Source of the DNA: a virus
Lineage: Duplodnaviria; Heunggongvirae; Uroviricota; Caudoviricetes
Virus record (IMG/VR): IMGVR_UViG_2537561977_000030
Span: 1-24,811 of that record
Direction: 5' to 3' (one strand)
Length of the DNA: 24,811 nucleotides
The first letter of the stretch is position 1. Each line of letters starts with the position of its first letter. The position numbers and the translations under genes were made by a program. Positions 1 through 24,811 of this stretch are shown here, piece after piece. Below the pieces are notes generated by a model. The model was not told the origin of the DNA. It saw nothing but the letters and a program-made list of their open reading frames with translations, and searched no databases.

Positions 1-581
1 TTACAACTCAGCTTGAGTTTGAAGTTCCTCTACAGGGTGATAACGATAAATCGTCGATATACCGATATCGTAAATAATTGCCAACTGTTTCCTGCTATAG
101 CCATTTTTGATCAGCCTTGCTATTTGTTCATGTTGCTCTTTTGTCAGTTTCGGACGACGTCCACCAATACGCCCCTGTGCACGTGCTGCTGCCAGTCCGG
201 CCAGTGTACGCTCTACAATTAATTCACGTTCCATTTCGGCTAAAGCCCCCATGACGTGAAAAAGAAACGCCCCATGGGTGTTGATGTGTCAATGCTGTCC
301 GTCAGACTACGGAAATTAACACCTTTTTCCCGCAATTCCTCAATAAGCGTGATCAGGTGTTTCATACTTCTGCCCAGTCTGTCCAGCTTCCAGACAACCA
401 GCGTATCTCCTTCTGATAGCGTTCTGAGCAGTTTTTTCAATCCCGGTCTGGCTGATTTCGTTCCGCTGATTTTATCTTCAAAAATCAGTTCACATCCTGC
501 GCAGTTCAGTGCATTGCGTTGTAAATCCGTGTTCTGGTCATTTGTTGACACACGAATATAGCCAATTTGCATAAAAAACAT
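1..581 (-). pseudogene. Serine DNA invertase (Hin/Gin/Pin/Cin family) split by a 1-nt frameshift
   Basis: ORF 240-581 gives an N-terminal resolvase catalytic domain (IGYIRVSTNDQNTDLQRNAL...VVWKLDRLGRSMKHL...SLTDSIDTSTPMGRFFF). ORF 1-252 in another frame gives the C-terminal part (MGALAEMERELIVERTLAGLAAARAQGRIGGRRPKLT...). Adding one A to the A5 run at 259-263 restores a continuous ...MGRFFFHVMGALAEMERE... reading, as in Gin/Pin. Confidence 0.85.
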
Positions 582-586
582 CCTCT

Positions 587-1663
587 TTGTTTCGTGAAAA
601 ATACATAGTTGGTATAGGTAGGGATAAAGACGAAAACGTTGGTTTACAGGAAACGGTAAACAAGGCTGATAACGCTGTCCAAAAGACAGGCGATACCTTG
701 TCCGGTGGACTTACTTTTGAAAACGACTCAATCCTTGCCTGGATTCGGAATACTGACTGCGCGAAGATTGGATTTAAAAATGATGCCGACAGCGACACTG
801 ATTCATACATGTGGTTTGAAACAGGCGACAACGGCAATGAATATTTCAAATGGAGACACCGCATCATTGGCACCCGGCCTAAAGACCTGATGAATCTTAA
901 ATGGAATGCTTTGTCTGTTCTTGTTGAAGCCCTTTTCAGCAGTGAAGTGAAAATATCGACAGTCAATGCACTGAGGATATTTAATTCATCTTTTGGTGCC
1001 ATTTTTCGTCGTTCTGAAGAATGCCTGCATATCATCCCTACACGAGAGAATGAGGGAGAAAATGGTAATATAGGGCCATTACGCCCCTTTACGCTTAATC
1101 TCAGAACTGGCCGGATAAGCATGGGGCATGGTCTTGATGTTACAGGGGATATATTTGCAAACCGTTTTGCAATTAACAGTAGTACCGGCATGTGGATTCA
1201 TATGCGTGACCAGAATGTTATTTTGGGACGTAATGCGGTATCCACTGATGGTGCTCAGGCTTTGCTCCGTCAGGACCATGCCGACCGCAAATTTATGATT
1301 GGCGGTCTGGGAAATAAGCAATTTGGCATCTACATGATTAATAACTCAAGGACAGCCAATGGCACCGATGGTCAGGCGTACATGGATAATAACGGGAACT
1401 GGCTTTGCGGCTCGCAAGTTATTCCCGGCAACTATGGCAATTTTGATTCCAGATATGTGAAAGATGTTCGACTTGGTTCACAGCAATATTATGGAGTGAA
1501 CAACTGGCAAACATGGAATTTTCAGTGCCCGTCAGGCTATGTACTGACGGGGATTAACGTACAGGATACCGGAAAAAACTCTGCCGATAATATTGCAGGC
1601 GTTCATTACAGGCCAGTGCAAAAGTATATAAATGGCACTTGGTATAATGTGGCGAGTATTTAA
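587..1663 (+). CDS. Alternative tail-fibre C-terminal cassette (S'v-like), silent in this orientation; the exchangeable part is about 640-1663
   Basis: Translation contains [36 protein letters not shown]... and ends [11 protein letters not shown], paralleling the C-terminus of the minus-strand fibre (INGTWYNAGSI). It starts at the crossover site and has no constant N-terminal part of its own. Confidence 0.7.
627..652. other. hix/gix-like 26-bp recombination site A (invertase crossover site)
   Basis: Plus strand AAGACGAAAACG TT GGTTTACAGGAA. Its reverse complement TTCCTGTAAACC AA CGTTTTCGTCTT shares a 14-bp arm plus core with site B at 3702-3727, in inverted orientation. Confidence 0.7.
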
Positions 1664-1664
1664 T

Positions 1665-2192
1665 ATGATGCACTTAAAGAACATAAAAGCAGGTAATGCT
1701 AAAACAGTGGAGCAGTATGAGTTAACAAAGAAGCACGGAGTCATCTGGCTTTACTCTGAGGACGGAAAAAACTGGTATGAGGAAGTGAAGAACTTTCAGC
1801 CAGACACAATAAAGATTGTTTACGATGCAAATAATATTATTGTCGCCATCACCAAAGATGCCTCCACGCTTAACCCTGAAGGTTATAGCGTCGTTGAGGT
1901 TTCTGATATTACAGCTAATCGTCGTGCTGATGATTCCGGTAAGTGGATGTTTAAGGACGGAGCTGTGGTTAAACGGATTTATACGGCTGACGAACAGCAA
2001 CAACAGGCCGAATCACAAAAGGCCGCATTGCTTTCCGAAGCTGAATCAGTCATCCAGCCGCTGGAACGCGCTGTCAGGCTGAATATGGCGACGGACGAGG
2101 AACGCACACGACTGGAAGCATGGGAACGCTACAGTGTTCTGGTCAGCCGTGTGGATACGGCAAAGCCAGAATGGCCACAAAAGCCTGAGTAA
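1665..2192 (+). CDS. Tail-fibre assembly protein, alternative copy (U'-like)
   Basis: The N-terminus [23 protein letters not shown]...[13 protein letters not shown]...NFQPDT parallels the minus-strand U-like protein. ATG lies 2 nt after the S'v stop. Confidence 0.8.
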
Positions 2193-2197
2193 AAATT

Positions 2198-2217
2198 AAG
2201 GCCCGATATCGGGCCTT
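2198..2217. terminator. Bidirectional hairpin between convergent U' and U genes
   Basis: Perfect 20-bp palindrome AAGGCCCGATATCGGGCCTT, flanked by an A-run on one side and a T-rich stretch on the other, at the centre of the invertible segment. Confidence 0.5.
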
Positions 2218-2220
2218 GTT

Positions 2221-2754
2221 TCATTCTGGTTGTTCGGGAAACGTTACTGGCAGGCTGGAGGTGTCTGTGGATTCGACCTTCTGCGCATAGAGCATCCACT
2301 CGGTTAATTTTTGTTTATTCTCGTCGGAAATAATGCCCAGCCGTAGCTGTGAGTCCCACAGCTGGGTTTTATCCCTGACGAGCTGTAGCAGGCTTTGCTT
2401 TTCATTTTCCGCTTGTTGCCTCTGCTCTTCCCCGGTATAAGTTCGCTTTATCACTACGCCATCTTTGAACATCCATTTACCTGAAATATCAGCCCGGCGA
2501 TTTGCTGTAATATCAGGAACCTCAACGACGCTTGCGCCTTCCGGATTAATTGCTGAAACATCCTTTTCAATACAAATAATAACGCCGTTGTGGTCATAGA
2601 CCATTTTCAACGTATCAGGCTGAAAGTTCTTTTGTTCCTCATACCAGTTTTTCCCATCCTCTGTATAAAGCCATTTGATGTTAAATTGCTTTGTTAGCTG
2701 GTATTGCTCTTTTGTTTCAGGATTACCAGCAGAAATGTTTTTTAAGTGCATCAT
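2221..2754 (-). CDS. Tail-fibre assembly protein (Mu U / P2 G-like)
   Basis: 177-aa ORF MMHLKNISAGNPETKEQYQLTKQ...[13 protein letters not shown]...; start is 2 nt after the fibre stop. Confidence 0.85.
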   Translation of the reverse strand: MMHLKNISAGNPETKEQYQLTKQFNIKWLYTEDGKNWYEEQKNFQPDTLKMVYDHNGVIICIEKDVSAINPEGASVVEVPDITANRRADISGKWMFKDGVVIKRTYTGEEQRQQAENEKQSLLQLVRDKTQLWDSQLRLGIISDENKQKLTEWMLYAQKVESTDTSSLPVTFPEQPE

Positions 2755-2756
2755 CG

Positions 2757-4045
2757 TTAAATACTCCCCGCGTTATACCACGTCCCATTAATGCAATACT
2801 GAATTGGCCTTGCCTGTGTTGTATCAATTAATTCATCACGGTTTCCGTTAACTGAACCCGTAACGACATAACCTGACCTGTCAGACCATCCGGGACCATT
2901 CCATGTCTGAACAGATGACAGACCGCCCAGGCGAATACCTGTAATAAACCTTGAGTTACATTCTGCCTGCGTGTATGCACCAACATCTCCCGCTGATGGC
3001 TTACGTGTTGTGGTGTAGAATTCTGACCAGTCAGCCTCAAATCCATAACCATCACGCGCTGAACGATAAAAAATACCGCCGTTCTTATAATTCACACGGA
3101 ACTGTACGGCAGGGCAACTCCCCGTATTCATATTGAAGTGGAGTATTAATGCTGTTGCGCCTTTGATATCTGCATCATAAACACCGCTATTCCAGTTCCA
3201 GCCAACAGCTTTATCATTTGCAACCCTGCTTCCTGTTTGCCCTAAAGCAAATGCAGGCTGCTGGTTTTTCGTGTTGTAGTCTCGTCGCCAGCCAGGAGCG
3301 TAAGCATCACCATGATTAATATAGGTGAATTGAGCGTTAGTGATTCCGCCGCCGCTGGACGTGCCCGGCGTGGTAACGCGTATGGTCATTGCGCCACGAG
3401 TGCCAGTAACTTCCACAACAGCACCTGCAAGACAAATATTTCCGCAACCTGTATCTGTAATGACCTTATTATTTGCATAAGCCCATGAGCCTTTGCACAT
3501 CCAGTAAGGATGGTTAAATGCCCCCTGACTCTCCAGCCACGAAATAAATTGCGCAGTTGTCCAGACCTGACTATCGCCACCAATATCCACCCATGCGCTA
3601 TATGCGCGACAGGCACCAATATTTTTGGTGAAGGTATCTTTTCCTGGAATATCTGCGCCGTTCTGGTTTTTCTGTAATGCGCCAGAAGCCTGATTTATCG
3701 CTTCCTGTAAACCAAGGTTTTTGACAAACAGCGCAGGATCAGGAATATCTGCGCCGTTCTGGTCTTTAGCCAGCTTTTCCGCCAGCTTGTTCAGTACCGT
3801 AGTCGCAAAGTTTGGATCATTACCGAGAGCGTCAGCCAGCTCTTTAAGCGTATCCAGTGTCTCAGGGGCGCTGCCTGCAAGTGCCGCAAGTGCTTTGGCC
3901 ACAAACTCCGTTGTCGCCAGCTTTTTGCTGTTATCGCCATTTGCAGGTGTAGGTGCTGTTGGTGTGCCGGTGAATGCCGGACTGGCTTTCTGTGCGTACC
4001 GGGTATGCGGGTCTGCTGCCGCGATGTGTTTCGCAAGGTCAGCCC
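2757..4045 (-). pseudogene. Tail-fibre gene, C-terminal portion (constant part to 3716, variable Sv part 3715-2757), severed from its start by the IS
   Basis: Translation has tail-fibre hallmarks (GADLAKHIAAADPHTRYAQKASPAFTGTPTAPTPANGDNSKKLATTEFV...NLGLQE...INGTWYNAGSI). The ORF in the track (2757-4169) takes its first 41 codons from inside the IS. Confidence 0.8.
3702..3727. other. hix/gix-like 26-bp recombination site B inside the tail-fibre ORF
   Basis: TTCCTGTAAACC AA GGTTTTTGACAA closely resembles hixL (TTCTTGAAAACCAAGGTTTTTGATAA) and encodes N-L-G-L-Q-E on the minus strand. Confidence 0.75.
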
Positions 4046-5339
4046 CTGAGGAATCCCCAGAAAACAAGACAGGCATAGTGAGATGTGATCTAATTGATTG
4101 TGCTAACAATTTCAAGGAGATCACCACTATGCCTGCACGTTCATTATGCCAAAATTTCCTTAACAACATACTGGCCCCTTTGCATCTTTACCGTCAAAAA
4201 TCACTGATTGACGCAACTAATGCTGTAATAAATGGCGCTTCCCTCACACTTACCAGTATCGGGCGTCATTTAACCGGTACGGCATCAGTTAAAAACAAAA
4301 TAAAGCGGGTGGATCGACTGTTGGGGAATCGACATTTGCAAAATGAGGTTTCCACCATTTTTCAGCGAATTACCCAAAAGATTACGCGGGGAATGTCTCG
4401 TGTTGTGATACTCATTGACTGGAGTGCTTATCATGCCTCTCGTTTTCAGCTTTTGCGGGCAAGCCTGGCATGTGACGGGCGTTCTTTACCGTTGATGAGT
4501 TGTGTCGTTCCATCATCACAGACAGCGAATGCAGATGTACATGAGCGTTTTCTGGAATCGCTTGCTGAGTGCTTTTCCCCCGGGACTGATGTCATTGTTA
4601 TTACAGATGCCGGTTTTCAGGGGCGATGGTTCCAACAGCTCCGCTCCCGTGGCTGGACCTATATTTGCCGGGTACTGGGCAATCATTATTACAATGTTGG
4701 TAATGGCTGGGAAAAGGTGTCGGACTCAGGCACAAAAGCATCAACGACAGCAATTTATTTAGGTGAAGGCCTGCTGGGTCGAGATAAAAATGCACAACAT
4801 GAAGGGCATTTTTATCTTTATAAAAGTAAGCCTAAAGGTCGTAGATTTAAACGCTCGAAGGAAAGAGCAACCAGACCATCGGTGACGGCTAAAGCTCGTA
4901 CTGCCGGGAAATCACCATGGTTTATTTTCACAAACAGTACTGAGTTCTCGCCAAAACAGGTAATGAAATTATACAGCCGTAGAATGCAAATTGAGCAAAA
5001 TTTCAGGGATGAAAAAAATCCTCGCTGGGGATTTGGACTACGGTTTGGTGCCAGTCATTCATCCGGGCGGGTCACGGTATTGAGTCTGATCGCAACATTA
5101 GCCAGTATCATTATGTGGTTAAGCGGTTTCAGCCTGGAAAACAAAGGGATACATCATAAATATCAGGCAAATACAGTGAAGCACAGGCGAGTCATCTCGT
5201 TATTAAAACTGGCGGAGAATGTGATTCGACATTCTCCACTCATACTAAACACACTGTCACTTGACGCAGGGCTGAAAGTTCTACAGCAACGGTATACCAA
5301 TATGATAATGGTTTACTAAATTTTCTGGGGATCCCTCAG
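4046..5339 (+). mobile_element. IS4-family (IS10-group) insertion sequence, about 1.29 kb
   Basis: 19-bp terminal inverted repeats CTGAGGAATCCCCAGAAAA (4046-4064) and, reverse-complemented, CTGAGGGATCCCCAGAAAA (5321-5339). Flanked by direct repeat AGGTCAGCCC (4036-4045 and 5340-5349). One transposase ORF. Confidence 0.85.
4129..5319 (+). CDS. IS10-like DDE transposase (396 aa)
   Basis: ATG at 4129 preceded by AAGGAGA. Translation aligns with remembered IS10 transposase blocks (KRVDRLLGNRHL..., IVITDAGF..., YSRRMQIEQNFRDEK...). The upstream part of track ORF 3721-5319 is a read-in artefact. Confidence 0.85.
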   Translation: MPARSLCQNFLNNILAPLHLYRQKSLIDATNAVINGASLTLTSIGRHLTGTASVKNKIKRVDRLLGNRHLQNEVSTIFQRITQKITRGMSRVVILIDWSAYHASRFQLLRASLACDGRSLPLMSCVVPSSQTANADVHERFLESLAECFSPGTDVIVITDAGFQGRWFQQLRSRGWTYICRVLGNHYYNVGNGWEKVSDSGTKASTTAIYLGEGLLGRDKNAQHEGHFYLYKSKPKGRRFKRSKERATRPSVTAKARTAGKSPWFIFTNSTEFSPKQVMKLYSRRMQIEQNFRDEKNPRWGFGLRFGASHSSGRVTVLSLIATLASIIMWLSGFSLENKGIHHKYQANTVKHRRVISLLKLAENVIRHSPLILNTLSLDAGLKVLQQRYTNMIMVY

Positions 5340-10324: not shown

Positions 10325-12801
10325 CAGCGGTACTCCTTACGTTGTTTCTGAGCCAGCAGACGCTCCAGCATTTTTTCCAGCTCATGCAGGCTCATATTCA
10401 GGGCTCCAGTCAGCCCGGCAGGCGCTGCGGTTTCCTTACCATTGAGGAAAAACTGAGGATTAAAGCTGACCTGGATACCGCCAGACGCTCCACCGCCAGT
10501 TGCAGTTGCGCCACGGCCTGAATATCCGGCAGCCATGATTTCCGGCGACGGGATACGGGGAACATCCGGTGTCATTTCAGCGGCCAGGCGCTGCCCGGCC
10601 AGTGCAGCAAGCGGAGTGGTTCGCTGCAGGCCAATGGCGGCACCCTGCGCGATATTGTCACCAAAGCCCATAAACACGCGACTCGGCGAATGGATGCCCA
10701 GCTTTTCGCTGAACCAGTCACTGATGCTGTCACCCATTCCGGTTACGCTGGTTTTGAGCGACTCCCATTTGTTTCTGATGCCATTTATCAGCCCGTCGAT
10801 AAGATGACCACCGAAGTCGGTGAACTTCGCCGGCAGATCAACGCCGAGATATTTCAGCGCAGCCGCAAAGGCTTTATAAAGCAGCCCCGCCGGAGACCAG
10901 TTAACCAGCAGTTTACCAGTTCCCGCGATGCCGCCGTTAAAGGCTTCCTGAATGTCAGCCCAGCGCTGTTTAAACCAGCTACTGACTGCGCCCCAGTTGT
11001 GGTAGATAAGGTAAGCTGCTGCCGCAACGGCGGTGATAACGAGACCGATGGGATTCATCATCAGCGCCCGGCCAATCCAGAGAACGGCGCGTGCAGCAAT
11101 CATAAAACCGCGAACGAGGCTGCCCGTCAGAACTTTGCTGAGTTTCAGTCCTCCGCGGGTCAGTCGGCTGAATCCAGTGACAAGCCAGCGTAATTTGCCA
11201 CCTTCTCCGAGTGCGGTAGTCAGTCGACGCCAGTTGGTCCGGAGTAAAACAGCAGTTTTCCAGACGTTCACAAAGGGGGAAATAAGAAGATTCAGCCCCA
11301 GTTTGAGGCCAATAGTCGCTATCTTAATCGCAAGGAGCGCACTGATGAGCTTAAAAGCCCCACTGACAAATTGCGGGTGAGTCGCCACCCAGTGTTTTGC
11401 CCCCTGAATGAGTGGGATCAACTCCTGTGCCAGAGAAATAAAAGAGGGGGCGAGCTGATCGCCCAGCGTAATAGCCAGATCGCGACTGCTGACCATAAGC
11501 GCTTTAGTGGCTTCAGAGGGAGATTTCAGCCGCTGATCGTAAGCACTGGCAAGCAAATCGTTATCCGCAGCCCTGAGGGCACCGGCACGAATCTCGCGGT
11601 ACCTGTCCATGTTGGCCAGCATCGGGCGGATAAACGCCATGACCTGCATATCCGCGAACATATCGCCCAGACCAAAGTTTTTTGCCAGAGCCTGAAGTGC
11701 CTCATCTCTTGCCGTATCATTTTTTATTTTCATGGCGGATTTGAACCCGGCCAGAGCTTCGGGGCTTTTTGTATTGAGGTAACGCTCTATAACACTCAAC
11801 ATCCCTTCAATCGGAGAGATCCCCGCAGCCTTATAACTCGCAATAGATCCCTGCAAATCAATACCCAGGTCAGCAAACTGTTTCTGAGTATCGCGGGCAA
11901 AAATTTTGGTAAGAAAGTTTTTAAAGTTATTGGCCGCTTCGTCGGTGGAGCCCGCACCGATTTTTGCTATCTGGAGACTGGCCCCGATTTCAGCAACAGC
12001 CTCTTTTCCACTGGCAACGCCCGCCATCATTGGGGCCAGGGACTGCATCCATTTGACCTGATCCGGAATTTCAAATGACCCCTGATCACCGGCATAAGCC
12101 ATAATATTCTGGACGGCACCAAAATCTCTGGCGGCACCTTTCAGGGAGTTTTGCCAGACAGCGGCCACTTTTGCCCAGTCCTGAGATGACGTGCGTGTTG
12201 CCGTTGCCGCGCGGGCAATATCCGGCATCAGAAAACCGATATCTGACAAGTTATCAATATTGTCGCTGATGAGCGAACCCACCGCCTCCTGCAGCTCATC
12301 CTGATACTGATTGTATTTAAGTGCCCAGCCTTTTATCTGTCCGGCAAGTGCATCCCGCGTTTTATTGTCATATTTTGCGGTGATCGACATATCAATCATT
12401 TTGTCCTGAAAAGACATGGACTGCTGAACGGCCGGGGAAACCGTATGATAAACAGTCTGTGTCATGCCATACGCTTCAAGTCCCTGACCATACAGCGCCA
12501 TGCGGTTAGCTTTCAGCGCATCACTGGTCGCTGATGCCGCTGACAGGCGGCGCTGCTGGCGCTCAATTTGCTCCATGGTGCGGCTTACCCGCAGCAGCTC
12601 GCTGTTGAGACGCTGCATCCGGGAAGAACCCAGTTGACCATAACGTTCTGTTGCACGGGTTAAAGCGTTCTGACGTTCCTGCAGGCGGCGTGAGGTATCG
12701 CTCAGGGAATCAAGCGCACGGCGGGTACCGCTCATTGCAGAACGGAATGTGCTGCCAATCATCCCGCCGATAACAACGCCGACTGAAAACTGTCCCGACA
12801 T
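10324..12801 (-). CDS. Tail tape measure protein
   Basis: 825-aa ORF with an alpha-helical, Ala/Gly-rich central region and hydrophobic segments, placed between chaperone and baseplate genes. Confidence 0.85.
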   Translation of the reverse strand: MSGQFSVGVVIGGMIGSTFRSAMSGTRRALDSLSDTSRRLQERQNALTRATERYGQLGSSRMQRLNSELLRVSRTMEQIERQQRRLSAASATSDALKANRMALYGQGLEAYGMTQTVYHTVSPAVQQSMSFQDKMIDMSITAKYDNKTRDALAGQIKGWALKYNQYQDELQEAVGSLISDNIDNLSDIGFLMPDIARAATATRTSSQDWAKVAAVWQNSLKGAARDFGAVQNIMAYAGDQGSFEIPDQVKWMQSLAPMMAGVASGKEAVAEIGASLQIAKIGAGSTDEAANNFKNFLTKIFARDTQKQFADLGIDLQGSIASYKAAGISPIEGMLSVIERYLNTKSPEALAGFKSAMKIKNDTARDEALQALAKNFGLGDMFADMQVMAFIRPMLANMDRYREIRAGALRAADNDLLASAYDQRLKSPSEATKALMVSSRDLAITLGDQLAPSFISLAQELIPLIQGAKHWVATHPQFVSGAFKLISALLAIKIATIGLKLGLNLLISPFVNVWKTAVLLRTNWRRLTTALGEGGKLRWLVTGFSRLTRGGLKLSKVLTGSLVRGFMIAARAVLWIGRALMMNPIGLVITAVAAAAYLIYHNWGAVSSWFKQRWADIQEAFNGGIAGTGKLLVNWSPAGLLYKAFAAALKYLGVDLPAKFTDFGGHLIDGLINGIRNKWESLKTSVTGMGDSISDWFSEKLGIHSPSRVFMGFGDNIAQGAAIGLQRTTPLAALAGQRLAAEMTPDVPRIPSPEIMAAGYSGRGATATGGGASGGIQVSFNPQFFLNGKETAAPAGLTGALNMSLHELEKMLERLLAQKQRKEYR

Positions 12802-19289: not shown

Positions 19290-20111
19290 TTATCCTCTCA
19301 GTTCCTGTTGTGCCAGTGGCTGAAGCGTACCCTGATAGCGGGCAAGGTCGGGACGGTATGCTGCCCCCGGTGCATAAGACCAGCCGACGTCGGTGGTCAC
19401 CTTCGTGGTGCCGGTATTAAAGGTGGCCACGTTCCGCATTTCGCCGGTTTTCTCTGAGACCAGTTTCAGTTCATGGCCCATGGCAGAGCCGGAGCTGATA
19501 ACCTTCAGGCCACGGGCACGTACATCCGCCGCACTCAGGGCAATCACACTACAGCGGCAGCGCCAGCCGTTCGGCGGGTAAAATGCCTGCCAGAACGGGT
19601 CATCCCAGCGCAGCACCAGACCATGCAGCGCCAGATGGCTCCTGCGGGTATGGCTGTCGTTGATGCCGGTATACATCCAGTACGGCCTGTCGTCGACGTT
19701 TTCCATCTGTTCCGCCCAACGACCGGCGCTGTAGAGTACGGACATATTGGTGCGAAAGATGGTATCGAGCCGCCACGAACTGCCCTGCTGAATGGTGACC
19801 GGCTCACCCGTTACCGGGTCAGTCGTGTCACTCGGTCCCCACCATCCCCTGCGCTTCAGCGCCGGCTCCAGCTCCTGCCGGAACCAGCGATCGGTTTTTC
19901 CTTCATCGACAGCCTGCTGCAGTGTCCCACGAATATCTTCCAGGATATCCAGGCGGGTCACTTTAGCGACGGTAAAGGCGCGGGCATGGGCTTCCTGCCA
20001 CATTTCTTCCCAGTCCCAGGTAATCTGATACCCTTTGGACTTCAGGTAGCTGATTGCCCGCTTCGGGGGAAGCGTCATGCAGTACGCCAGTTCAGCCGTT
20101 GTCACGCTCAT
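19290..20111 (-). CDS. Head morphogenesis protein (Mu F / SPP1 gp7 family)
   Basis: F-family-like sequence. Likely ATG at 20111 with a GGGGG ribosome-binding site; the track start at 20138 is TTG. Confidence 0.75.
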   Translation of the reverse strand: MSVTTAELAYCMTLPPKRAISYLKSKGYQITWDWEEMWQEAHARAFTVAKVTRLDILEDIRGTLQQAVDEGKTDRWFRQELEPALKRRGWWGPSDTTDPVTGEPVTIQQGSSWRLDTIFRTNMSVLYSAGRWAEQMENVDDRPYWMYTGINDSHTRRSHLALHGLVLRWDDPFWQAFYPPNGWRCRCSVIALSAADVRARGLKVISSGSAMGHELKLVSEKTGEMRNVATFNTGTTKVTTDVGWSYAPGAAYRPDLARYQGTLQPLAQQELRG

Positions 20112-21108
20112 GCAGACGCCCCCAGATATTTGCCACAAAGAGAATGCGGGCCAGCCGTTCCTGCAGATCGTCCGTGTTCATCTGAGGGTAGAGCTCCGCC
20201 AGTTCGCCCAGCAGCTCAGACGGGTTAACCCCATTTTCGACCCGCTTAAACAGAGGTGCCAGGACGGGTTCCAGCGTGCCATTTAACGCGCCTCCGTTCA
20301 TCAGAATGTCCAGCGCGTCGTCAAGCTGCTGCTGAGCCTGAATATCGGCATCAATCGCCTCGGCAAATGACAGCGGCAACATGTTCTTCTCGCGTTCTGA
20401 CGGTGGTGTCTCGTCAATATCGCCGTCCTGCAGCTGGTACTCACGCTTAAAGTATTGCGGGGTCAGACGCAGACCCGCCCGGGTGAGTTTTTCGTCGCGG
20501 GTGGCACGGGTGTCATCAATGGCCTCCTGTTCCCACATGGCCCAGACCGGACACGGCACATCGCCGAAGTTCAGGGTGACCACCGTTCTGATGACCTGAT
20601 TCACTGCCGCCTGAATGATGTCCGCATCCGCATCGCGGATATCAGCCGTTACCTCCAGCCCGGCCTGTGCAGAGGCCTTGTTACTGTTCGCTTCCGTGGT
20701 CTGATTCTGACCGAGTAATGCAATGGAGATCTCACTGCGTGACAGCGTGATCAGCTCGCGGAATACCTCGCTGCTGTCCGCCTTGCCATCCGCGGCTTTG
20801 AGTTCGATGCTGCTGTCATCGGGGATGGCGGCCACCGCGTCCTCCACCATCTGCTCCATGGAGTCCAGCAGTTTTTCAATCTCTGCATCATTTGCACCCC
20901 TCGGGTGCTTACCGATCACCCACGGGGAGCCAAACTTTTCGGCAAAGCGGAGCCAGAATTTCATCCCGCCTTTCTTGAAGGCGACCGGCCAGAAGCACAT
21001 GGACAGATCCGGAAAACCGTAAGGATTGTCATAGGATGCATCCTGTGCCGGCACCACGAATTTTGACGGTGACAACAGCTCACCCTCCACACCCGCATCA
21101 CGTGCCCG
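20092..21108 (-). pseudogene. Portal protein (Mu gp29 / DUF935-type), N-terminally truncated remnant
   Basis: About 335 codons where DUF935 portals run about 500. An in-frame stop lies immediately upstream at 21109-21111, and there is no credible start or ribosome-binding site. Confidence 0.65.
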
Positions 21109-21145
21109 TCATGGAATTCTCCCGCCCTGACAGGGAGGACTCGCA

Positions 21146-21418
21146 ATGATTACCCCACAGGAAGCACGACAGCGCACCCGAACCCTTGTTGAACACTATG
21201 TCAACGAGTGTGAATACCGCGACCTCACCGATGTGAAGCACGTCCTGACGGCGCTAATCAGCATGGCCGCTCAGGCCATTGTGGCGACCAACGGAAAGGC
21301 GGCTGCCCTGCAGGTACTGGTGAACACACTCACCCACACGGCAGAGCATGAGGTGCCGTACCGGATGGAAACCACTGCAGAAGGCGGCCTGCACATCACC
21401 GTCAGCCGGAAGCACTGA
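21146..21418 (+). CDS. Hypothetical 90-aa protein
   Basis: ATG preceded by GGGAGG; first gene of a plus-strand operon. Confidence 0.55.
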   Translation: MITPQEARQRTRTLVEHYVNECEYRDLTDVKHVLTALISMAAQAIVATNGKAAALQVLVNTLTHTAEHEVPYRMETTAEGGLHITVSRKH

Positions 21419-21427
21419 GGGCGCGGC

Positions 21428-21724
21428 ATGACACGAAACACCGAACTCACCCGCACCGCCCTCTACCGTCTGGCCCTGCAGCGTTTCGGGCCGGACGCAC
21501 AGGCCCTGAAACTGACAGAAGAGGCCGCTGAACTGGCGGCCAGTGCTGCCCGCAATCTGAACGGACAGGGCAGCGAAAGTGACCTCGCGGCAGAGCTGGC
21601 AGACGTGGAAATCATGACAGAGCAACTGCGCCTTCAGGGGATGGACCGGCTGATTGACTTCCACAAACAGAAAAAACTGGAACGTCTGGCTGCACGACTG
21701 GGCGTGATTTACACGAACGAGTAA
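21428..21724 (+). CDS. MazG-like nucleotide pyrophosphohydrolase (small, phage type)
   Basis: 98 aa with an EEAAELAASAA...ELADVEIM arrangement matching the EExxE...ExxD metal-binding pattern of the MazG/HisE-like fold. Confidence 0.55.
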   Translation: MTRNTELTRTALYRLALQRFGPDAQALKLTEEAAELAASAARNLNGQGSESDLAAELADVEIMTEQLRLQGMDRLIDFHKQKKLERLAARLGVIYTNE

Positions 21725-21738
21725 CCGGGAGGCATTCA

Positions 21739-21955
21739 ATGGCTGACATACTCAGGGAAATCACCGCATGGACACTGATTCTTACTGGCCTGGCGACATG
21801 CCTCAGTACGGGGGGCAGCCCTGGCTGCCCTGCTGATGCACATAACAACACAGTGGTTATGGGAAAAGCTTAAAGCAGCATACAGCCTGAAAGAGCTGTC
21901 CGACGCTGTCCGGGCATGGAAACGGCAGAAAAATACCGGAGATACTGAACAATGA
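21739..21955 (+). pseudogene. Small membrane-protein gene apparently frameshifted at a G6 run
   Basis: ATG at 21739 with a GGGAGG ribosome-binding site reads MADILREITAWTLILTGLA... The downstream frame, which ends in a TGA overlapping the next gene's ATG (ATGA), is reached by removing one G from 21810-21815. Confidence 0.35.
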
Positions 21956-22635
21956 CAGATCAGAATAAACACATTGAGAAACTGAAAAAGTTGCTGGCGC
22001 TGGCTGCATCCGGCAACCCGCACGAGGCCGCTCTTGCACTGCGCCGTGCCCGTAAACTGATGGATGTTCACGGCATCACACATTCCGACATAGCCATGAG
22101 TGATATTGATGAAACCATCAGTCACTACTGGCCGACAGGCAGCCTCCGTCCACCGCGCTACATGCCAGGCCTGATGAACATCATCCGCGAGGCATTTGGT
22201 GTTAACTCCATCATTCACCCCGGCACATATCCGGGTGTGGGGTTCTACGGCAACCGGGAACGGGCCGCACTGGCTGCGTACACCTGGGAGGTGCTGGCCC
22301 GCCAGTTGAAAAAGGCGCGTCAGCAATATATCAGCGCACAGAACAAAAGAATAAAAACTGCCACCCGTACCAGCCGTGGTGACCAGTTTGCTGAAGGCTG
22401 GGTGCTGGCCGTTATCAGTGAAATACAGTCCTTCGCCCTGACCGATGACGAACGTGAACTGATGCAGCAGTGGCTGGAACATAAATACCCGCAAACGCAA
22501 ACCACCAGGGCGCGTAAACCGGGAAGAAGTCGCAATGGCGACGCCTCGCGCTATGCGGGGTTTCGTGAAGGGCAGAACGTCAGACTGCACCGCCCGGTCA
22601 GTGGGCAGGAACAACAGAAACTGGAGGCCAGATGA
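21952..22635 (+). CDS. DUF2786-like domain protein
   Basis: 227 aa; N-terminal KHIEKLKKLLALAASGNPHEAALALRRARKLM motif as recalled for DUF2786; ATGA start overlap with the upstream gene. Confidence 0.5.
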   Translation: MTDQNKHIEKLKKLLALAASGNPHEAALALRRARKLMDVHGITHSDIAMSDIDETISHYWPTGSLRPPRYMPGLMNIIREAFGVNSIIHPGTYPGVGFYGNRERAALAAYTWEVLARQLKKARQQYISAQNKRIKTATRTSRGDQFAEGWVLAVISEIQSFALTDDERELMQQWLEHKYPQTQTTRARKPGRSRNGDASRYAGFREGQNVRLHRPVSGQEQQKLEAR

Positions 22636-22862
22636 TTACGCTATCAGGTAACAGCCGGAAATTAAAAGCCTGCCGAATATCTGCCAGATACCTTTTTGCC
22701 CGCGCCTTTTTTAAGAACGTCAGGCCGGGGATCACAATTGGTGTTATTGCCGGACGCGAACAGGTTGAAAAATACATGTCAGGTGCATGGTGGAATAACG
22801 ACCCTGTCATTGCTGCCCGTAATATTCATATCAGTTGGGGGGATATTCAGAATGACTGCTGA
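22632..22862 (+). CDS. Hypothetical 76-aa protein
   Basis: ATG overlaps the upstream stop (ATGA). An alternative frame (22696-23067) overlaps, so the assignment is uncertain. Confidence 0.35.
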   Translation: MITLSGNSRKLKACRISARYLFARAFFKNVRPGITIGVIAGREQVEKYMSGAWWNNDPVIAARNIHISWGDIQNDC

Positions 22863-23067
22863 ATCTGTTGTATGTGCCCTGTTCTGGTATTGTTTTGTCG
22901 GTTGGTGTACTGCTGAACTGCACCGCCGTTCAGGGTTTTATTCACGTTACAGTGGTGCCAGCTACTGGATTAGCTGGTCGGTGATGTTCCTGTGCTGGCC
23001 TGTGGCGCTTCCTTTATATGTCGATTATATCGGTGGCGCAGGTAAAAGGAGCAACGATGATGACTAA
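22852..23067 (+). CDS. Small membrane protein (71 aa, two predicted transmembrane segments)
   Basis: ATG at 22852; hydrophobic stretches VVCALFWYCFVGW and WISWSVMFLCWPVALPL. Confidence 0.4.
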   Translation: MTAESVVCALFWYCFVGWCTAELHRRSGFYSRYSGASYWISWSVMFLCWPVALPLYVDYIGGAGKRSNDDD

Positions 23068-23509
23068 ACAACGTCTTATCCAGCTCATTCATATTGCCCG
23101 TAATGAACTGGGTATGGATGAAGACACCTACCGCCAGATGTTACAGGGGCTGACCGGTAAAGCCTCAACCAAAGGAATGGATACCACACAACTAAACTGC
23201 GTGCTGGAATCCATGAAAAGGAAAGGCTTTCGCGTTAAGCCTGCCGGAAAAGCCAGCTCCGGTTTACCGCTGGATAACCATCCGCAGTCCAGGAAAATCC
23301 GTGCGCTATGGCTTGAAATGGCTGCTGCCGGCATTGTTCGTGACCGTTCAGAAAATGCATTAGCGCGGTGGATCAAGCGGGAAACGGGCATCAGCGCCCT
23401 GCGCTGGCTCAATACTGAACAGGCAAGCAGTGTTATTGAGAAACTGAAGAAGTGGCAGCACAGAGCTGCGGGAGTAAAACATGAGCGACCTGAATCAGTT
23501 TCGAAGTAA
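23057..23509 (+). CDS. gemA: GemA-like protein (Mu gp16 family, DUF1018)
   Basis: MMTKQRLIQLIHIARNELGMDEDTYRQMLQGLTGKAS...MKRKGF...SRKIRALWLEMAAAGIVRDRSENALARWIKRETGISALRWL matches the gp16 family pattern; AAAGGAG before the ATG. Confidence 0.75.
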   Translation: MMTKQRLIQLIHIARNELGMDEDTYRQMLQGLTGKASTKGMDTTQLNCVLESMKRKGFRVKPAGKASSGLPLDNHPQSRKIRALWLEMAAAGIVRDRSENALARWIKRETGISALRWLNTEQASSVIEKLKKWQHRAAGVKHERPESVSK

Positions 23510-23867
23510 AGGGCCGGAACTCCTGGTGGAGCTGGCACAGCATACCTCTGAGACCGTTCGCGAGATTATTGATATTGAGCCCGAAGTTGCCGACCAGATT
23601 GGTCAGGCCGTCGCGAACCGCATGATGCAGGTCTGGGGCGGGCAAAACGTTTATTTTCCTATGGGGATGAGATGGAAGATAAGCCAGCGTGACCGTGAAA
23701 TCTATGAGGCGTTTAACGGACGTAACCACCACGAACTGTCCCGCAGATTCAGGGTTTCAGTTCCCTGGATTTACAACCTGGTGAAGCGCGTAAGAAAGGA
23801 AGAAATCAGCCGGTTGCAGGGGCAGTTATTCGAAGACGATGATGAACCGGATGACAGCCGGGATTAA
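23481..23867 (+). CDS. mor: Mor/C-family transcriptional activator (Mu middle operon regulator-like)
   Basis: 128 aa; C-terminal GGQNVYFPMGMRWKISQRDREIYEAFNGRNHHELSRRFRVSVPWIYNLVKRVRK matches the Mor/C helix-turn-helix region; directly follows the gemA-like gene, as in Mu. Confidence 0.8.
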   Translation: MSDLNQFRSKGPELLVELAQHTSETVREIIDIEPEVADQIGQAVANRMMQVWGGQNVYFPMGMRWKISQRDREIYEAFNGRNHHELSRRFRVSVPWIYNLVKRVRKEEISRLQGQLFEDDDEPDDSRD

Positions 23868-23931
23868 TCAAAAGCGAGGTGATAATGCGCTATAAAACCC
23901 CCAACAGCGCCCCCCCTGAAGAAGGCAGACC

Positions 23932-24123
23932 ATGCAGATATGGCGATGGAAATTATCCGGCATTTTTTTTGACGGTCTGACTTCTGCTGAGGCGAGATAT
24001 GTTCTCCGGGAATGCGACAGGCTGATTGACAACTCGCGCCTGCATATCGGGCCTGATGAAAATTGTGTTTTGTATTACGGGAAAGTTTTACGTAACCCAC
24101 CACCACCGCCACCAAAGTGTTAA
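23932..24123 (+). CDS. Hypothetical 63-aa ORF ending in a proline run
   Basis: ORF only; region contains C7 and T8 homopolymers and a second short ORF from 23886 in another frame. Confidence 0.25.
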   Translation: MQIWRWKLSGIFFDGLTSAEARYVLRECDRLIDNSRLHIGPDENCVLYYGKVLRNPPPPPPKC

Positions 24124-24153
24124 CGAACGTCAATAAATTCCCGGTTTATGAAA

Positions 24154-24184
24154 AGCGCAATGGATAACCTGTTGCGCTTTTTTT
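24154..24184 (+). terminator. Rho-independent terminator
   Basis: Stem AGCGCAA...TTGCGC with an 11-nt loop, followed by a T7 run. Confidence 0.65.
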
Positions 24185-24217: not shown

Positions 24218-24811
24218 ATGTTTGATGCATCCTTGCTGAATCTGCCATGGGCAACGCTGGTGACGCTCACCAGTGGTTATATCGGCTATTTTATTGCGAA
24301 CGTGGGGCTGAAGAACCATCACAAACCCATTGAGGTGACGTTTTCGACGCTGATTTTTGGTTTGCTGTCAATGATGGTTTACCAGGCTGTTATGTGGGCA
24401 GGTCTGAATTCGTGGCTGGCGACACCTCCAACACTTCTTTGCGCTTTTGCATACGCTGCATTATGGAGAAAATATGGGCGTAAATGGATGTACAGATTCC
24501 TCAGAAATAAGGATATATCATGGTCTGATGATACCCCCTCTGCCTGGATGCGTATGTTTGATCAACATGGATACTATATCAGCGAGGCGTATGTCTATCT
24601 GAAGAATGGTACTGTGCTGCTTTCTGAAAATCCGGGGAAATTTGAAGGCCAGGCCAGCGGTTCTTTTGTGTTAGGAGTGGAAAAAGACATAGTGATGTAT
24701 GTCACTCATGAAAAAAACCGGGGCGCGATGAATGGATTGAAAAAGATGTTGAAAGTAAAAGCTGGGGAGCGATGGCAACCTATATCCCTGCAGATCAGAT
24801 TGCCATGGTGA
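24218..24811 (+). CDS. Hypothetical membrane protein (197 aa; N-terminal transmembrane helices plus soluble C-terminal domain)
   Basis: GGAGGA ribosome-binding site before the ATG; hydrophobic N-terminus; stop is the last codon of the window. Confidence 0.6.
   Translation: MFDASLLNLPWATLVTLTSGYIGYFIANVGLKNHHKPIEVTFSTLIFGLLSMMVYQAVMWAGLNSWLATPPTLLCAFAYAALWRKYGRKWMYRFLRNKDISWSDDTPSAWMRMFDQHGYYISEAYVYLKNGTVLLSENPGKFEGQASGSFVLGVEKDIVMYVTHEKNRGAMNGLKKMLKVKAGERWQPISLQIRLPW

Follow-up and report, generated by a model that had tools for sequence, protein, structure and literature searches.

Identity and Organization of the Block

The six small genes at positions 21146-23067 (+ strand) of the IMG/VR record IMGVR_UViG_2537561977_000030 (Caudoviricetes; the complete stretch of 24,811 nt analyzed is referred to here as the window) probably constitute the semi-essential early (SEE) accessory region of a B3/BcepMu-type transposable Escherichia coli prophage, orphaned by a deletion. 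The block is an ordinary, still uncharacterised phage accessory region and not a new kind of system: regions of this kind are already well known, and the genes, designated g1 to g6, are members of existing families of "unknown function". In intact relatives, the gene order comprises the repressor/ner region, transposase A, B (an ExeA-like ATPase), an 89-aa gene, gam, a 64-aa gene, g1-g6, gemA, mor and the terminator, the block being located in the early operon between gam and gemA. The genome layout is of the B3/BcepMu type, in which the early genes lie on the opposite strand to the late genes and gemA-mor is found at the genome end. The SEE region of transposable phages has been described as long and poorly conserved, encoding small proteins with uncharacterised functions (PMC8705779). 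Both of these characteristics can be observed here, namely the location between the transposition genes/gam and gemA-mor, and the presence of short, poorly conserved open reading frames (ORFs). The initial annotation, made from the sequence of the window, had placed the genes where Mu-type phages carry their variable semi-essential early genes, which agrees with the gam-gemA interval of the intact relatives and its variable content.

Comparison with known systems provides a clearer picture of the block. The SEE region of Mu (kil, gam, sot, arm, cim, lig, gemA) occupies the corresponding place in the early operon, following the transposition genes and ending at gemA-mor, and likewise consists of many short, overlapping and dispensable ORFs with an expected role in host takeover and replication support. 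Unlike in Mu, the layout is of the B3/BcepMu type with the early operon opposite to the late genes, and no Mu homologue was detectable; Mu was absent from the tblastn matches for g2 and g4. In the pE operon of B3 and Fc02 (ORF10 to ORF3) and in D3112-like phages (JBD24 gp7-gp18), a g4 homologue is similarly located a few small genes upstream of gemA-mor, although the B3 neighbours differ: the positions of g5 and g6 are taken in B3 by DUF3164 and two proteins of ~150 aa. The pE operon of Fc02, a B3-like phage, is induced upon derepression, and functions have been assigned to A, B, gemA and mor only (PMC9936078). The closest phage is Escherichia phage PhiKM (PQ738613, genus Bcepmuvirus), with 95% nucleotide identity over the block and identical gene order, while carrying an alternative g6 allele of 41% identity. 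PhiKM and the prophages of ~640 complete E. coli genomes are themselves complete, whereas the window displays a deletion of ~13 kb and a frameshift in g3. In such live relatives, the block genes would be co-transcribed from the early promoter upon induction and translationally coupled, and their products may act as dispensable helpers of lytic growth, as do the Mu SEE genes kil, gam, arm, cim and gemA.

The individual genes all lie on the + strand. The first, g1 (21146-21418), encodes a 90-aa soluble protein with a full-length match to phrog_3691, and g2 (21428-21724) encodes a 98-aa all-alpha protein that is a candidate MazG-like nucleoside triphosphate (NTP) pyrophosphohydrolase (phrog_2245). 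The third, g3 (21739-21954), is a pseudogene with a residual 44-aa ORF at 21739-21873, the intact form of which matches phrog_3958. Downstream are g4 (21952-22635; a 227-aa protein with DUF2786 and DUF7168, PHROG 421), g5 (22632-22862; a 76-aa basic protein, phrog_3681) and g6 (22852-23067; 71 aa with two aromatic-rich hydrophobic segments, phrog_6436). They are followed by gemA (23060-23509; Pfam GemA, 1.4e-40), the middle-operon activator gene mor (23481-23867; Pfam Mor, 5.2e-41) and an intrinsic-terminator-like hairpin at 24150-24182, a 14-pair stem followed by a T-run, which closes the operon. A Shine-Dalgarno-like sequence precedes every start in the block. The two ATGA start/stop overlaps described in the initial annotation are located at 21952 (start of g4) and 22632 (g4/g5), and a further one at 21146, the start of g1, is the leftover of an overlap with the deleted upstream gene. 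In addition, g5 and g6 overlap by 11 nt, and g6 and gemA by 8 nt. The earlier description of six tightly coupled genes therefore holds for five ORFs, with their Shine-Dalgarno sequences and overlaps, but not for the third gene, which is frameshifted here.

Since Shine-Dalgarno sequences are present throughout, full-length PHROG family matches were obtained for all six genes, the synteny of the block is kept across hundreds of genomes, and the ratio of nonsynonymous to synonymous divergence (dN/dS) is well below 1, the six ORFs are, judged from sequence, real genes and not chance reading frames. Short length and the existence of a curated family for g4 only could be taken to indicate chance reading frames or annotation artefacts. 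Set against the evidence above, in which dN/dS remains well below 1 at high dS, the probability of that explanation is negligible and it is counted as already refuted.

Deletion Junction and Decay of the Prophage

Both flanks of the junction were compared by alignment with phage PhiKM and E. coli SCU-105. Portal homology to intact genes ends at 21108 in the alignment with intact prophages, and homology of the early region begins at 21100/21101, within the 3'-terminal part of the 64-aa gene. The deletion junction at 21100-21108 is therefore a 9-bp microhomology, ACGTGCCCG, common to the portal gene and to the 3' end of the small upstream gene. On one side, 1017 bp of the 3' part of a Mu-type portal gene remain (20092-21108, - strand), from which the N-terminal ~160 codons have been deleted; the Pfam Portal_Mu match covers profile positions 116-336 only. 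On the other side is the remnant of the 64-aa Cys-rich (CxxC…CxxC) gene (21101-21149, + strand; phrog_3401), consisting of the last 16 codons and the stop. This remnant aligns with 11856-12050 of the related locus L001, and the full 64-aa gene precedes g1 in intact prophages. Comparison with SCU-105 and PhiKM demonstrates that ~13 kb is missing, from portal codon ~160 through the end of the 64-aa gene. The phage genes lost comprise the portal N-terminus, the large and small terminase, the lysis genes and a Dam-type methylase, while the early genes lost are transposase A, the B ATPase, the 89-aa gene, gam and most of the 64-aa gene. The regulatory stretch, that is, the repressor/ner region with the early promoter, is also gone. 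The prophage is a deletion derivative made by illegitimate recombination across the 9-bp microhomology.

The distribution of this junction is narrow. Both flanks were found at one place in none of the complete RefSeq E. coli genomes, and an exact search for the junction in one-genome-per-species GTDB contigs returned no match. The same junction was located, through an exact-protein look-up, in two E. coli assemblies, GCA_012768515.1 and SRR2994196, which are 99.985% identical to the window. Between the junction and g1, no sigma-70-like promoter was detectable on the + strand. Because the ~13 kb deletion cut the block off from its early promoter, the block in this genome is most likely a silent, decaying relic. 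The carrier phage is dead, having lost its terminase, lysis, immunity and transposition genes.

A second lesion is found in g3. In relatives, g3 encodes a 71-aa protein with one long hydrophobic segment, the stop of which overlaps the start of g4, and the intact product is predicted from hydropathy to be a single-pass membrane protein. The small membrane protein named in the initial annotation is thus correct for the relatives, but in the window the gene is a pseudogene: alignment with the intact allele and translation in each frame revealed that the G-run at 21810-21815 is longer by one G, so that only the 44-aa ORF remains. Of the complete RefSeq E. coli genomes, 527 carry the gene, none of them with the frameshift allele, and the identical frameshift was found in four further assemblies (L088, L090, L092 and L093). 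Sequencing error was considered as its source and rejected, given that four independent assemblies carry it; the frameshift is a genuine lineage marker. In GCA_000167915.2 and SRR10491784, the frameshift is present in a prophage that is undeleted, and the frameshift therefore came first and the deletion second. Both the ~13 kb deletion, which severed the promoter and the transposition genes, and the g3 frameshift had been missed by the initial annotation. The window represents a tidy example of prophage decay, in which a frameshift and then a microhomology-mediated deletion left a promoterless accessory block. The right material for study is the live relatives, PhiKM and the prophages of the ~640 complete E. 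coli genomes, and not the deleted copy.

Distribution and Selection in Relatives

The block is present in ~640 of 5,426 complete E. coli genomes at 95-98% identity. Two surveys were performed, one with 71 loci anchored on g4 and the other with 73 loci anchored on gemA and binned by GemA identity. At a GemA identity of at least 90% (24 loci), g4 and g6 were present in all 24, g1 and g2 in 23, g5 in 22 and g3 in 18. At 70-90% (32 loci), g6 was found in 31, g4 in 27 and g2 in 26, while g1 and g5 were each retained in 10 and g3 in none. Below 70% (17 loci), the counts were 10 for g2, 5 for g4, 2 for g6, 1 for g1, and 0 for both g5 and g3. In the loci anchored on g4, g1 occurred in 32/32 close, 9/31 mid-distance and 1/8 distant relatives, and g5 in 30/32, 5/31 and 0/8, respectively. 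It can be observed that g1, g3 and g5 are narrowly distributed and that g2, g4 and g6 are commoner. Some relatives possess the small Cys-rich gene alone between B and gemA. Others have unrelated genes in this interval, of which, by eye, one is like the DUF3164 gene of B3 and another is HU-like. Since none of the six genes occurs in every relative, all of them appear to be dispensable for this phage type. This distribution also disagrees with the alternative, named in the initial annotation, that all products are conserved replication or structural components.

Values of dN/dS were calculated pairwise against alleles from 80 IMG/VR loci. The ratio was 0.03-0.15 for g4, 0.12-0.33 for g2, about 0.10 for g5 and 0.12-0.31 for g6, and was higher for g1 (0.17-1.0) and g3 (0.3-0.4). 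From these ratios, all six genes can be regarded as being under purifying selection in relatives.

A side observation concerns the neighbouring gam. A Gam homologue was detected in only 4 of the 31 mid-distance relatives (L037-L067), which do retain B, the 89-aa gene and the small Cys-rich gene. In those with no detected Gam, either a different nuclease inhibitor substitutes for it or there is none.

Gene g2, a Candidate MazG-like Enzyme

The statement in the initial annotation that none of the products has an assigned function agrees well with the results of the PHROG, NCBIfam, PADLOC and literature searches, which yielded nothing beyond a family-level label of NTP pyrophosphohydrolase. No match was found for g1, g3, g5 or g6 in Pfam, NCBIfam, PADLOC or the PDB, and NCBIfam returned no match for any gene of the block. 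The defence-system models of PADLOC matched none of the ten proteins scanned. Sequence searches of the PDB with g1, g2, g4, g5 and a distant g2 homologue gave chance-level matches only.

The label itself belongs to g2, which matches PHROG 2245 ("nucleoside triphosphate pyrophosphohydrolase") at 4.8e-34. The earlier description of this protein as MazG-like is supported by that match and by its motifs, but the Pfam evidence stays below threshold: PRA-PH scored 15.1 bits vs a cut-off of 21.3, and the curated cut-offs for MazG, MazG-like and PRA-PH were not reached. Among 16 close members of the family, PRA-PH was matched by 12 and MazG by 8, all sub-threshold, and ten distant relatives gave sub-threshold Pfam MazG matches only. 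In the 16 close homologues, E31, E32, E56 and D59 do not vary and E35 hardly does, and all five acidic residues are invariant or nearly so in 83 distant homologues. The paired acidic metal-binding motifs EExxE…ExxD are intact in g2. A profile of the close homologues retrieved nothing significant from the PDB. With the broad profile of 83 sequences, the Bacillus MazG 5ie9 was reached at E = 0.007 in an alignment that matches both the EExxEL and the EExxDV motif, and weak matches were also obtained with iMazG (2q73/2q5z), YpjD (2gta) and SSO3215 (1vmg). The AlphaFold2 (AF2) model consists of four helices at low confidence (pLDDT 66.6). Foldseek with this low-confidence model placed iMazG, HISN2 and 5ie9 in the top 10, at E values of 0.65-1.2 that are not significant. 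Compared with the small MazG-like enzymes, that is, Bacillus MazG 5ie9, integron iMazG 2q73/2q5z and YpjD 2gta, g2 has a similar length of ~100 aa, four predicted helices, and EExxE and ExxD motifs that align with those of 5ie9. It differs in that the similarity is weak (E 0.007-0.1 with the broad profile) and below the Pfam cut-offs. Taken together, these results make it very probable that g2 encodes a minimal MazG-like NTP pyrophosphohydrolase. The enzyme would split a (d)NTP or nucleotide alarmone into the monophosphate and pyrophosphate at the EExxE…ExxD metal site. Searches with tblastn gave no g2 match outside enterobacterial phages. An exhaustive profile search recovered 10,698 representative clusters for the family at E<=1e-3, mostly of 90-100 aa; this family of ~95-aa proteins, with more than 10,000 sequence clusters, is not captured by Pfam.

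Whether such an enzyme acts against host immunity cannot be read from the family label. Atd1, a MazG-like protein of Pectobacterium phage PcCB7V, depletes (p)ppGpp and blunts TIR-STING toxicity (bioRxiv 10.1101/2022.06.09.495361), whereas a cyanophage MazG displayed no hydrolysis of alarmones (PMC6850273). Because these two differ on alarmones, membership of the MazG family does not decide the role of g2. Atd1 and, putatively, g2 are phage-encoded minimal MazG catalytic domains located in an accessory region, a likeness drawn from their description. By analogy with Atd1, the block may be an anti-defence module, a candidate role named in the initial annotation, one or more products of which neutralise host immunity, for example g2 by depleting (p)ppGpp or a second messenger and the small proteins as stoichiometric inhibitors. 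Such a role would suit the early expression, accessory position and high gene turnover of the block, the retained catalytic residues of g2, and the occurrence of two g6 alleles of ~40% identity between nearly identical neighbours. The behavior of the cyanophage enzyme speaks against it, as do several properties of the remaining genes. The g4 product is basic and so no DNA mimic, and its strong purifying selection is unlike that of typical arms-race genes; moreover, g3 has been lost with no apparent consequence in otherwise complete prophages. No likeness to characterised anti-defence proteins turned up, although no search against an anti-defence collection was made. On balance, an anti-defence role for the block is a possibility by analogy, and an unlikely one.

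A defence system or lysogenic-conversion locus was also considered, and was rejected on account of the position in a repressed early lytic operon and the absence of a PADLOC match.

Gene g4 and Its Family

For g4, which the initial annotation had called DUF2786-like, DUF2786 (PF10979) was matched over residues 8-44 with 43 bits vs a cut-off of 23.9 (4.4e-11), and DUF7168 (PF23771) was matched in addition over residues 46-189 with 90.5 bits vs a cut-off of 25.5 (9.9e-26). The protein is basic, with an isoelectric point (pI) of 10.1 and a conserved basic stretch, and has a putative KH-like core. The GXXG loop of type I KH domains was not recognised in g4: the equivalent loop, WPTGSLRPPRYMPG, is not kept as GXXG in distant homologues, and the sole GXXG in g4 (GFYG) sits in a strand. 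With its basic character and KH-like core, g4 most likely would bind nucleic acid. In the literature, DUF2786 was found named in passing only and DUF7168 nowhere, with no functional study of either.

The homologues of g4 belong to a large phage family, PHROG 421 being spread over many unrelated phage groups. They include B3 ORF5 (34% identity), JBD24 gp17 (37%) and proteins of Ralstonia Mu-like phages, and in transposable phages of three genera the homologue is always located a few genes upstream of gemA. In the virulent Bradleyvirinae, g4 homologues lie between SSB-like/Cas4-like genes and the DNA polymerase/helicase genes. By structure searching, the family was extended to phiM12, PhiW-14, actinophages and Bacillus SP-15, in which every homologue is uncharacterised. 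These neighbourhoods, directly upstream of gemA in one case and amid SSB-like/Cas4-like and polymerase/helicase genes in the other, are what would be expected if g4, possibly together with g2, were a quasi-core helper of DNA metabolism that serves replication or transposition directly, for example through binding of single-stranded or branched DNA at the intermediates of transposition/replication and through clean-up of the dNTP pool. The putative KH-like fold, high pI and conserved basic stretch of g4 point in the same direction, and MazG enzymes are classic house-cleaning enzymes (PMC10014863). The gemA-anchored loci do not agree with a quasi-core function, since 5/32 mid-distance and 12/17 distant loci lack g4, and 6/32 and 7/17, respectively, lack g2; some relatives even have essentially no genes between B and gemA. 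The absence of g2 and g4 from relatives implies that neither is essential to this phage type, and conserved helpers of DNA metabolism are accordingly an improbable explanation for the block. Status as a core gene, which the g4-anchored loci and the synteny with B3 and JBD24 had appeared to indicate, was likewise rejected for g4 once the gemA-anchored survey was available, in which many relatives lack it.

It is rather doubtful, but conceivable, that at least one product has an undescribed activity of general occurrence in phage-host conflict or phage DNA metabolism, either g4 as a KH-like nucleic-acid-binding early factor of diverse phages or the g2 family as enzymes that deplete an immunity signal or substrate. 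Such a g4 function would extend to very different groups, among them the transposable phages, Bradleyvirinae, phiM12, PhiW-14 and actinophages. Any function established for the g4 or g2 family would carry over to the annotation of thousands of genomes of phages and prophages. More broadly, the genes of the block belong to the large pool of conserved, unstudied phage early proteins.

Furthermore, the nucleotide divergence of g4 was compared with that of its neighbours. The differences between the window g4 and its closest relatives (loci L003-L036) are almost all synonymous, with dS of 0.12-0.19 and dN <= 0.015, whereas g5, g6 and gemA beside it are identical or nearly so to those of some of these loci. 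The synonymous divergence of g4 next to near-identical g5, g6 and gemA is suggestive of mosaicism through recombination, the breakpoint lying close to the g4/g5 boundary.

Predicted Membrane Proteins g3 and g6

The product of g6 had been described in the initial annotation as a 71-aa two-helix membrane protein, and hydropathy analysis indeed predicts two hydrophobic segments. The gene is restricted to Enterobacterales, and its product is named "prophage membrane protein" in one source. A second g6 allele (~40% identity; L002 12917-13123) has the same two-segment hydrophobic profile. The genes flanking the two alleles share 96-100% identity, as would be seen after replacement of one allele by another or after diversifying change.

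Both g3 and g6 would insert into the inner membrane. Their predicted topologies, single-pass for g3 and two-segment for g6, would permit a role in host takeover or exclusion at the membrane, by arresting cell division, modifying the envelope or keeping out superinfecting phages, comparable to Mu Kil or to exclusion proteins known from Pseudomonas transposable phages. Almost constant coupling of g6 to gemA in enterobacterial relatives is compatible with such a role, and the B3-like phage Fc02 does possess exclusion genes (PMC9936078). The Fc02 genes, however, are lysogen-expressed genes of the regulatory region, whereas the block is part of a repressed early lytic operon. In addition, the Pfam, PHROG and NCBIfam scans revealed no homology to Kil or to characterised exclusion proteins. 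A membrane-acting role of this kind is thus very unlikely to be what the block provides.

Other Features of the Window

Between mor and the terminator, a small ORF is located at 23885-24123, with 63 aa from the ATG at 23932; 78 aa are annotated for it in SCU-105. It ends in a proline run (PPPPPPKC), matched no family, and is found in few relatives only (L001, L010, L028 and L034).

The last gene of the window (24218-24811) encodes 214 aa in relatives, with one predicted membrane segment (phrog_12870). Its location after the operon terminator at the prophage end is moron-like. Relative to all four closest assemblies, a 1-bp deletion is present at ~24711, putting the C-terminus out of frame. Among relatives, forms with 93%, 74-80% and 56-69% identity are found, or the gene is absent.

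At the other end of the window, region 240-4169 is an invertible segment for tail fibres, of the type represented by the Mu G segment, with alternative fibre C-termini. Two Caudo_TAP assembly genes are arranged there in opposite orientation (1632-2192, + strand; 2221-2754, - strand), and long diverged inverted repeats are present at 1610-2021 and 2398-2810. A serine-recombinase ORF at 240-581 (- strand, 113 aa) contains the Resolvase catalytic domain but no DNA-binding tail, and may be truncated. The G+C content is 0.43-0.47 at positions 1-5000 vs 0.54-0.60 elsewhere in the prophage, and the region of low values coincides with the tail-fibre/invertase segment. Because its G+C is lower than that of the rest of the prophage, this segment is suggested to have been acquired from a different source.

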